From contig CM000151.3 of assembly GCA_000004695.1 (NCBI GenBank), positions 4,064,001-4,128,000 on the forward strand: a stretch of 64,000 bases of DNA, given 5' to 3'. The notes beneath the pieces were generated by a model. That model was not told the DNA's origin and did not search any database. It saw only the letters and a program-made list of their open reading frames with translations. Of the stretch, positions 36,904 to 39,310 are shown one piece after another. Position 1 is the stretch's first letter, and every line of letters begins with the position of its first letter. This stretch comes from Dictyostelium discoideum. Taxonomy: Eukaryota. The translations under genes and the position numbers were made by a program.

Positions 36904-37227
36904 TTTTTTTTTTTTGAATTGGATAACGCAATTATTATTTGCTTCTCCTTGAGATGCTAGATCTCATTTTATTTTTTTTTTTTTTTTACAGGGTCTTTTT
37001 GATTAAAACATCTTTTTTGTCCAAACTTTTTTCTAAATCTTTTTTTATTTTATCGTCTGGTTCGTGATTGATGTTTATGACGTATTTGAATTGTTTTTTT
37101 TTTAATTGAGTTTTATCCACAATTTCGCTTATTTTTTGTAGGCATTTGTGTTGCTTAATATTTGTGGTGTTGTTTGTGATTTTCATTTTATTTTCTTTCT
37201 ATCTTTTTTATTTTTCTGATTAACTTG

Positions 37228-37271
<44 letters not shown>

Positions 37272-38977
37272 TTATAGAAAGTACTGAGTGAATTATTGTA
37301 TTTTTTGAGATGTTTAGGAAGTTCTATTGCGGGTGTTGATGATGATTTGTGACACCCCTTGTCCTGTTTTATCAATTGGTGCGTGGTGTGTTATTTTGTT
37401 TTTATATTGTTGATTTATTGAGTAAATTTTATTTGTTTTTATATTTGTTTCAGTTAGAAGTGCTGCGTCCAGCTTGTTGTTGTCTAAAACGGTGTTTATT
37501 ATGCTGGCAGATTGGATGGTGTTGGATCCTTGGACGTTCCAAACACCTATTCTTATTGTGTTTTTCTTTATAGTTTTATTTGGGGTAGATTTTTATCTAC
37601 CTTTTGAAGTTTCTGGTTTATTTTGTCTTCTAACTGATCTTTACTTTGTTCATTGTGTTGTTGGTCTTGTGTGTTTGTGGGGTTTTTTGATTTATTGATT
37701 TGTTTTAGAATTTCCTTGTTGAAGTTGTCTATATCTTCATCCATTTTTGTTTTTATGCTTTTTTGTCCATATTCACCCAATTTTGGTTTGACTGGTGTTT
37801 TGTTGGTCTTGTTTGTTTTGCCTTGTTGTTTCTTTTTTGGTGTGTTTAACAATTTACTTGGTGAATCGATAATTTTCGATGGTGTACCATAGGTTGGGCT
37901 GAAACTCATGATATGTTTTATTGGAGAGGAGAAGAACCATTGATTTGAAGGGATTGAAAGTGGGAATTCTATTTTTCTTATTGCATCAGTGTTTGGGCTG
38001 GTGAAGTCGAAGATATCATTTGCCTCTCTAAGTTTTTCTTCCGTTGTTAGTCCCTTTGTTTCGCCGTGTTGTTTTATTGGTGTATTGTATGGAGATGGTG
38101 GTTCGATAGGTTTTTCTGATTTTGTTTTAATTTCTTGATTGTTTATCGATTGTGTATTGATCTCATTCTCTATTCTTGTTAGTTCATCTACGTTTTCTAG
38201 TGATGCTTCTATTACCTTTTGAGCTGTATCATCTAGGGCCATAAATGTTTTATCATTAGATGAGGATGTGATTGGTGGGATAATGATTGTTCTTTTTCCT
38301 TGTTTTGGTATTTGTTCTGATGTAGATTGTGGTTGTTGTTCATCTGATTGTTTTTTATTTTTGTTTTCTTCTTGATTTTCTGGTAATGAGGTTTGATCTC
38401 TCCATCCTTTGTTGGAGTGTCCAATTAATGTTAGATTGTCTAGTTCAATGATAGTGTCAAATTCTTCTACGACTCTTTTCACTGTTTTGATAATTAGAGT
38501 TTCGCCTTTAATTTCTGATTTAATTAGTTTACATCCTTCATTTTCTATTACCCATTCTATTTCTGTGAGTGATTTATACCAATCAAAATCTGTATACATA
38601 TTTTTTGGTCTTATAGTGGTTATAAATTGTCCTTTTAATTCTGCATCAAACATATTTACAAAATAGATTACTGTACTAATACTGTCTGTGAGAATTTTGA
38701 ATGTATTATTACTTTTGATTAAAACATCTTTTTTGTCCAAACTTTTTTCTAAATCTTTTTTTATTTTATCGTCTGGTTCGTGATTGATGTTTATGACGTA
38801 TTTGAATTGTTTTTTTTTTAATTGAGTTTTATCCACAATTTCGCTTATTTTTTGTAGGCATTTGTGTTGCTTAATATTTGTGGTGTTGTTTGTGATTTTC
38901 ATTTTATTTTCTTTCTATCTTTTTTATTTTTCTTTAAAAAGTTAAAAATCTGGAAATTTTCTAATTAACTTGGTTCC

Positions 38978-39031
<54 letters not shown>

Positions 39032-39310
39032 TCTTTTTTATATGAAAAATGAAATAATCAAAAAAAGAGATTGTTGTTGTTGTTTGTTTTTTTCGATCTG
39101 ATTATTTTTTGCTTTTTTTTTGAAAATTTTGCTACGCAAAATTCTCAAAACGAAACAAATAATAAATTACAATAAAGTAAAAAGATGGCTTTTTAAAATA
39201 GTTTATTTATTTATTTATTTGTTTTTTAAGTCTTTTTTATATGAAAAATGAAATAATCAAAAAAAGAGATTGTTGTTGTTGTTTGTTTTTTTCGATCTGA
39301 TTATTTTTTC
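36904..39310 (-). mobile_element. TRE5-like tRNA-gene-targeted non-LTR retrotransposon, internally deleted (ORF1 present; no APE/RT ORF2), ~2.4 kb, 5' end facing the tRNA-Leu gene
   Basis: ORF1-like 444-aa ORF (37568..38902). An oligo(A) tail (plus-strand T-run 36906..36916) marks the 3' end. The 5' end lies ~46 bp upstream of a tRNA gene in head-to-head orientation, the hallmark TRE5 position. About 230 bp of the 5' module including the first 66 ORF1 codons is duplicated near the 3' end (36985..37215 vs 38703..38935; ORF 36986..37186). ~85-bp subrepeats sit in the 5' UTR region (39031..39115, 39225..39307). Confidence 0.6.
37568..38902 (-). CDS. Retrotransposon ORF1-like protein (444 aa) of the TRE5-like element
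   Basis: Long ORF inside the element. A partial second copy of its N-terminus (36986..37186) lies in the duplicated module. No enzymatic motifs, consistent with a non-LTR ORF1. Confidence 0.5.
   Translation of the reverse strand: MKITNNTTNIKQHKCLQKISEIVDKTQLKKKQFKYVININHEPDDKIKKDLEKSLDKKDVLIKSNNTFKILTDSISTVIYFVNMFDAELKGQFITTIRPKNMYTDFDWYKSLTEIEWVIENEGCKLIKSEIKGETLIIKTVKRVVEEFDTIIELDNLTLIGHSNKGWRDQTSLPENQEENKNKKQSDEQQPQSTSEQIPKQGKRTIIIPPITSSSNDKTFMALDDTAQKVIEASLENVDELTRIENEINTQSINNQEIKTKSEKPIEPPSPYNTPIKQHGETKGLTTEEKLREANDIFDFTSPNTDAIRKIEFPLSIPSNQWFFSSPIKHIMSFSPTYGTPSKIIDSPSKLLNTPKKKQQGKTNKTNKTPVKPKLGEYGQKSIKTKMDEDIDNFNKEILKQINKSKNPTNTQDQQHNEQSKDQLEDKINQKLQKVDKNLPQIKL

Follow-up and report, generated by a model that had tools for sequence, protein, structure and literature searches.

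The window analyzed here is a 64-kb stretch of Dictyostelium discoideum DNA (positions 4,064,001 to 4,128,000 of contig CM000151.3). At 36904-39310, on the minus strand, lies an element of 2,407 bp with an exact 14-mer at each end, head-to-head with a tRNA-Leu(UAA) gene. It is almost certainly a complete, young copy of TRE5-A.2, a known non-autonomous retrotransposon of D. discoideum of the non-LTR class (LTR: long terminal repeat), and nothing in the evidence contradicts that assignment. The element is already known: it has the canonical TRE5-A.2 architecture published as AB-ORF1-BC (PMC3159450; ORF: open reading frame). The features of the locus, with the basis for each in parentheses, are these:

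36890-36903, no strand: target-site duplication (TSD) on the 3' side of the element, AATGAATGCGTTCA (exact 14-mer abutting the element end)
36904-36915, minus strand: oligo(A) tail, 12 nt (sequence reading)
36916-36996, minus strand: C-module remnant, 81 nt, with a three-stem 3' hairpin and the sense end ...CCAATTC (published hairpin positions; fold)
36997-37273, minus strand: 3' copy of the B-module, including its oligo(A) run and a silent ORF1 ATG plus 63 codons (repeat identity and gapped extension)
37274-37330, minus strand: 3'-terminal remnant of ORF2, about 57 nt (aligned to the ORF2 end of the full-length elements at loci L005, L006, L003 and L001)
37329-37333, minus strand: ORF2 deletion junction, in sense ...CAACACCC joined to GCAATAG... 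(anchored comparison with TRE5-A.1 in L005 and L006)
37331-37592, minus strand: 5' remnant of ORF2, 87 codons (translation)
37568-38902, minus strand: ORF1, intact, 444 aa, DDB_G0274721 (ORF and protein match)
38695-39030, minus strand: 5' B-module, with the ORF1 start at 38902 as published (the repeat shared with the 3' copy covers 38713-39030; the full module reaches to about 38695)
39031-39309, minus strand: A-module promoter region, 1.4 copies of a 199-bp unit, one full (about 39111-39309) and one partial (39031-39110) (repeat scan)
39310, minus strand: extra G at the 5' junction (C at this position in the internal repeat unit)
39311-39324, no strand: TSD on the 5' side of the element, AATGAATGCGTTCA (exact 14-mer abutting the element end)
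39357-39439, plus strand: tRNA-Leu(UAA), the target gene (ARAGORN)
39463-39478, plus strand: external B box, GTCAGGTGTTCGATTC, 24 nt downstream of tRNA-Leu (fits the consensus by eye)

The module order A(n)-B-ORF1-B-C-oligo(A) is present, with the B-module bearing the ORF1 start. Direct reading and a repeat scan place an exact direct repeat of 221 nt at 36997-37217 and 38713-38933; on the sense-upstream side the homology extends, with gaps, through the oligo(A)/oligo(T) run as far as 37273 in the 3' copy and 39030 in the 5' copy, and in the gapped alignment two stretches of the 5' copy, of 7 nt and 29 nt, are missing from the 3' copy. The repeat includes the ORF1 ATG (38902-38900) and the first 63 codons, and its 3' copy reads as a 66-codon ORF (36986-37186). 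The first-pass annotation, made from the letters of the window, had correctly recognized a TRE5-type non-LTR element on the minus strand, its 5' end facing the tRNA gene, and a 5' module with the ORF1 start that recurs near the 3' end. Its details need adjusting: the repeat copies are real but were placed at 36985-37215 and 38703-38935, the ORF1 start is indeed shared but over 63 rather than 66 codons, and 81 nt (36916-36996) separate the 3' copy from the A12 tail that it was said to immediately precede. Those 81 nt are the C-module remnant; the 3' untranslated region is B followed by C, and the idea that the C-module might itself share sequence with the B-module falls away. The "tandem subrepeats" of about 85 bp seen in the 5' region do belong to a reiterated A-module, but they consist of about 87 identical nt (roughly 39024-39110 and 39223-39309), are spaced 199 nt apart rather than adjacent, and represent the overlapping part of 1.4 copies of the 199-bp unit. 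Further TRE5-A sequence was not found in the window outside 36904-39310.

Direct repeats of 221-277 bp that flank a single gag-like ORF in the same orientation are also what the remnant of an LTR retrotransposon would present, and in the 1992 literature the term "LTR" was reportedly used loosely for the TRE5-A modules. The anatomy makes an LTR remnant vanishingly improbable here. The repeats are internal: beyond the 5' copy comes the A-module, beyond the 3' copy come the C-module and A-tail, and what the TSD brackets is A...C(A)n rather than the repeats. The repeat ends are A-runs and ...AATCAAAA, not TG...CA; the 5' repeat stops inside ORF1, at codon 63-64, and therefore has no primer-binding site. 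Neither LTR hallmarks, including a polypurine tract next to the repeats, nor any ORF for reverse transcriptase (RT), RNase H or integrase between them turned up in the repeat ends, the ORF list or Pfam, as the first-pass annotation had anticipated; the ORF2 fragment is of the APE type, and full-length relatives have an ORF2 with APE and RT, and an oligo(A) tail. What recurs at the 5' and 3' sides is the B-module of the family, whose duplication goes back to the ancestor from which every TRE5-A element derives; it is neither an LTR nor a rearrangement peculiar to this copy.

The two published forms of TRE5-A differ in what they retain. TRE5-A.1 is AB-ORF1/ORF2-BC, with a 200-bp A-module promoter and a C-module of 134-137 bp, while TRE5-A.2, AB-ORF1-BC, has a large deletion of ORF2 and a 72-bp BC deletion that leaves the last 87 bp of C (PMC3159450). 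For comparison with this copy, nine loci (L004-L012) were taken from D. discoideum assembly GCA_054883475.1, where they had been found by way of an ORF1 variant of the same 90% cluster; the orthologous locus (L013) was found through a neighboring transposable-element ORF, and three further loci (L001-L003) come from D. cf. discoideum relatives. Full-length elements with a 1,047-aa RVT_1 ORF2, at L005 and L006, served as the reference for deletions. Against these, the ORF2 deletion amounts to 3,134 bp, which is not a multiple of three, and the deletion at the B/C border to 69-70 nt relative to TRE5-A.1 (the length of the oligo(A) run varies). The part of C that is retained, 81 nt in this copy, is equivalent to the final 87-88 nt of the C-module in TRE5-A.1. 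TRE5-A.1 in L005 measures 5,638 nt (its last nucleotide is published as 5647; PMC3159450), and adding the deleted segments back to this copy gives a length that fits the full-length copies.

The first-pass annotation had described an internally deleted copy that had lost ORF2. The deletion is there, although 87 codons of ORF2 remain at its 5' side and about 57 nt at its 3' side, but it is lineage-wide and did not happen in this copy: all ten other D. discoideum copies (L004-L012 and the ortholog) have an identical 31-mer spanning the ORF2 junction, ATCATCATCAACACCCGCAATAGAACTTCCT, and another identical one spanning the B/C junction. The ten copies have TSDs of 14-16 bp, and seven of them have an adjacent tRNA gene at a distance of 45-50 nt; the nine that are not orthologous each have a TSD of their own, six of them beside different tRNA genes. 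Because the junctions are identical at different loci, the deletions must have been inherited from a propagating lineage and did not arise locally; judged by these sequence comparisons, both the ORF2 and the B/C deletion come from the TRE5-A.2 master lineage. One might still imagine that a full-length TRE5-A.1 was inserted here and then lost its ORF2 in a one-off local deletion: 3,134 bp are, after all, missing relative to full-length copies, and the wording of the earlier annotation permits it. That history is highly improbable. Independent deletions would not share breakpoints with nine copies at other loci and with the ortholog; the other copies cannot be segmental duplications of this locus, for their flanks and TSDs differ; and TRE5-A.2 has been published as a lineage that is mobilized in trans.

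The same comparison points to additional marks of descent. Alignment to the 5' B-module of the window is almost gap-free for the 3' B-module of TRE5-A.1, implying that the latter keeps the 7 and 29 nt, whereas TRE5-A.2 3' B-modules align with gaps. BLAST alignment lengths indicate that the two gaps (window 37204-37230 vs 38935-38981) are shared by other TRE5-A.2 copies and not by TRE5-A.1. They would then be further markers of the TRE5-A.2 lineage, unmentioned in PMC3159450 and the other papers cited here.

Could the 3' B-C-tail segment instead be a second TRE5-A, severely 5'-truncated, lying in tandem with the first? Insertions of one TRE inside another or in tandem with it are frequent around Dictyostelium tRNA genes (L005, L006 and L009 provide instances), but a tandem pair has very little probability at this locus: no A-tail and no TSD separates the ORF2 remnant from the 3' B-module, and a single 14-bp TSD brackets the whole. 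In full-length TRE5-A.1, moreover, ORF2 is directly followed by the same B-C end, which is also present in the D. cf. discoideum relatives.

The target site conforms to what is known of the family. The 14-mer AATGAATGCGTTCA, proposed in the first-pass annotation to be a TSD, has exactly two occurrences in the window (36890-36903 and 39311-39324), against about 0.03 expected by chance with one mismatch allowed; TRE5-A TSDs range from 10 to 16 bp (PMC9012585). From the 5' end of the element (39310) to nucleotide 1 of tRNA-Leu the distance is 46 nt, at the upper end of the 33-46 bp first estimated and within the 47+/-3 bp upstream of tRNA genes reported for TRE5-A integration (PMC5391098). The published primer Leu(UAA)rev, GCAAGAGGCGAGATTCGAACTC (PMC3159450), is, when matched by eye, the reverse complement of the 3' end of this tRNA gene (about 39417-39438). 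At the orthologous site, L013 and two sister-species loci (L014 from D. cf. discoideum, L015 from D. firmibasis) have kept the tRNA-Leu(UAA) gene. The consensus to which the external B box was fitted is GTCnnnnGTTCRAnYC (PMC3159450), and its region is conserved in D. cf. discoideum. (A B box outside the tRNA gene is a known Dictyostelium feature.)

ORF1, the sole long ORF of the element, has exactly the sequence of DDB_G0274721 on AX4 chromosome 2 and shares 98-100% identity with a family of proteins from D. discoideum AX4. It differs by one residue (G361 vs D) from the commonest variant, which is common to nine other D. discoideum copies. The base concerned, at 37821, is G in AX4 and A in the orthologous copy at L013, as in the commonest variant (Gly and Asp, respectively); the G is either a private mutation or an error in the reference sequence. 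Neither ORF1 nor the ORF2 remnant has a significant Pfam match, which for ORF1 is in line with the published observation that the TRE5-A ORF1 resembles no other ORF1 (PMC5391098). Full-length copies at the same loci have a 444-aa ORF1 followed by an RVT_1 ORF2. The 5' remnant of ORF2 lies in the -1 frame relative to ORF1, overlapping its end (a -1 frameshift into ORF2 has been published; PMC5911963), and holds the start of the APE endonuclease (IGVWNVQG...LLTET). It is 86% identical to P0007 of D. cf. discoideum and similar to P0008, which has the GDFN endonuclease motif; a search with the 92-aa remnant retrieved two short D. cf. discoideum fragments only, and no full ORF2. An exact-protein look-up of the window ORF1, P0001, P0002, a 1,795-aa helicase-like ORF and a 393-aa TRE3 ORF gave no match, in an index that evidently does not contain AX4.

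The 3' end of the element retains the C-module hairpin that, as published, retrotransposition requires. The C-module nucleotides that were mutated in the published work, counted from the 3' end, are C38, A35, C26 and T15 (PMC3159450); counting from 36916, positions 38, 35, 26 and 15 of the window C-module are C, A, C and T, all as published. These nucleotides fall in stems I and III of a predicted three-stem fold, with a minimum free energy of -16.9 kcal/mol at 22 C (z = -2.9; reached by 4 of 500 shuffled sequences), and the published double mutants weaken this predicted fold. In the D. cf. discoideum relatives (L001-L003), which share the B-C 3' end, substitutions in the C hairpin are found mostly in loops. 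The oligo(A) tails of other TRE5-A.2 copies run to 10-27 A.

At the opposite end, a single extra G is frequent at TRE5-A 5' junctions and has been ascribed to reverse transcription of the cap (PMC3159450); we infer that the G at 39310 is likewise derived from the cap. Beside window 39310, an untemplated 5' G is also seen in other copies (L008 at 6620, L009 at 2627 and L012 at about 6610), and three copies that start with G share one internal start position (G + AGATCG). These starts would fit the addition of a cap-derived G and perhaps also transcription from a second start, 11-12 nt inside the A-module.

When was the element inserted? The orthologous copy in the second D. discoideum assembly (L013) has the same TSD and differs from the AX4 copy by three homopolymer lengths and the one base at 37821. 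No element lies upstream of the orthologous tRNA-Leu(UAA) in either D. cf. discoideum (L014) or D. firmibasis (L015), where this tRNA gene sits between the same Ras-like and profilin-like genes as in AX4. (These sites were reached through a reconstructed spliced profilin-like gene and its 90% cluster; the flanking Ras-like ORF, used as a query, retrieved no more than distant homologues in dictyostelids, presumably because of low-complexity words.) The unoccupied sister sites support insertion within the D. discoideum lineage; they do not by themselves prove the TSD. Reading the 14-mers as a TSD implies an unoccupied allele, ...CATAAAAAAAAAAAATGAATGCGTTCAATAAGGATT..., with a single 14-mer. The interval between the Ras-like and profilin-like genes spans 9.1 kb in AX4 (36491-45597), 2.1 kb in D. 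cf. discoideum (L014, 7872-10001) and 1.65 kb in D. firmibasis (L015, 8351-10001); retroelements around two tRNA genes appear to explain most of the difference.

Some limits apply to this account of the locus. Published lengths and genomic copies, and not a deposited TRE5-A.2 consensus, are what define the module borders; public records name ORF1 only as a "hypothetical protein", and the family name TRE5-A rests on the structural match to the literature. An empty D. discoideum allele with a single 14-mer was not seen, the second assembly examined carrying the same insertion, and in the flanks at L014 and L015 AATGAATGCGTTCA is unrecognizable because they have diverged too far. A scan of metagenomes for the empty-site sequence yielded no match.

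How would a copy of TRE5-A.2 move? Promoter function of A, the requirement for C, mobilization in trans and the interaction of ORF1 with TFIIIB have been described for the family (PMC3159450, PMC5391098, PMC5633606), and the following course, published for the family, is extended here to this copy. RNA polymerase II would make a plus-strand RNA from the A-module; ORF1 protein would be produced, act preferentially in cis, and bind TFIIIB that TFIIIC had placed at the tRNA gene. The C-module hairpin would be recognized by ORF2 protein (APE endonuclease and RT), supplied in trans by TRE5-A.1, and target-primed reverse transcription, at some 47 bp upstream of the tRNA gene, would generate the TSD, the A-tail and the cap-derived G. 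The prerequisites for trans-mobilization that are seen in this copy are an intact ORF1, an A-module and the C hairpin.

The likeness to TRE5-A.2, formerly a DRE subform, extends to module order, ORF2 deletion, B/C deletion of about 70 nt, C hairpin nucleotides, tail, TSD, distance to the tRNA gene and orientation; what distinguishes this copy from others of its kind is its 1.4 A-units (others have up to about 21) and its one private ORF1 substitution. The autonomous parent, TRE5-A.1 (about 5.65 kb), has the same A-, B- and C-modules, ORF1 and target preference, and is 97.9-98% identical over the shared 5' 1,980 nt or so (A, B, ORF1 and the start of ORF2); it differs in having a complete ORF2 (APE, RT and zinc finger) and the full 137-bp C-module. 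TRE5-B and TRE5-C of D. discoideum are tRNA-upstream non-LTR elements of the same clade, and TRE5-C also ends in a C-module; by published description, neither has a 3' B-module, and the 5'/3' repeat sets TRE5-A apart (PMC3159450). TRE5-A.1 and TRE5-A.2 have been characterized since about 1990 and provide a standard model of retrotransposition targeted to tRNA genes; this particular copy is an annotated AX4 locus. The main value of the comparison accordingly lies in correct annotation: an LTR-like repeat that is neither an LTR nor a private rearrangement, and a deletion that defines a lineage. A parallel outside Dictyostelium is offered by non-autonomous derivatives of long interspersed nuclear elements (LINEs) that have only ORF1, such as the mammalian HAL1: after an internal deletion, such a LINE still has ORF1 and the 3' end needed for recognition, and relies on ORF2 protein provided in trans. 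HAL1 is unrelated to TRE5-A.2 in sequence and host, and is not known to have tRNA-gene targeting or a duplicated untranslated-region module.

Are the lineage-defining features of TRE5-A.2 anything more than neutral scars? It is conceivable, if quite unlikely, that the B/C deletion of about 70 nt, the 7- and 29-nt deletions of the 3' B-module and the translatable 66-codon copy of the ORF1 start are adaptations, and that variable A arrays tune promoter strength. Such adaptations could improve the capture of ORF2 protein in trans or affect an antisense transcript that starts in the C-module; A arrays of 1.4 to about 21 units could set the promoter strength of different copies.

The arrays of the 199-bp A-unit come to about 1.4, 2, 8 and 21 copies in different insertions, and the description "A(n)B", said to go back to a 1992 paper, fits this variability. 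About 21 units are found in L009 (2628-6880) and about 8.4 units in both L004 (5226-6880) and L010 (5214-6880). The elements at L004 and L010 also have the same total length (3,779 nt), which suggests that the length of the A array is passed on through retrotransposition.

Other deletion derivatives are seen in D. cf. discoideum at L002 (7907-8410 and 12465-12590). One has the first 61 nt or so of the A-module joined directly to the 3' end of ORF1; another, downstream of a complete B-C end, has an A fragment joined to a C-module. Between that TRE5 copy and a tRNA-Lys gene lies an element of the Ty3/gypsy type (2666-7113).

About 155 nt downstream of the tRNA-Leu gene of the window, at 39594-42348, lies a 5'-truncated non-LTR element of 2.75 kb, which looks TRE3-like: its RT ORF carries a FADD motif and a C-terminus resembling a zinc finger, its A-tail is about 40 nt long, and a direct repeat of 26-30 bp flanks it (39564-39593 and 42349-42378). 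L013 lacks this element and has a single copy of the repeat--an insertion polymorphism with a visible empty site. Farther along, at 42680-44844 on the minus strand, more TRE3-like ORF fragments lie downstream of tRNA-Gly(GCC) (45269-45340, minus strand); they include a 276-bp repeat (42694-42969 and 44570-44844, 98% identical) and an ORF (44028-44669) annotated as DDB_G0274719.

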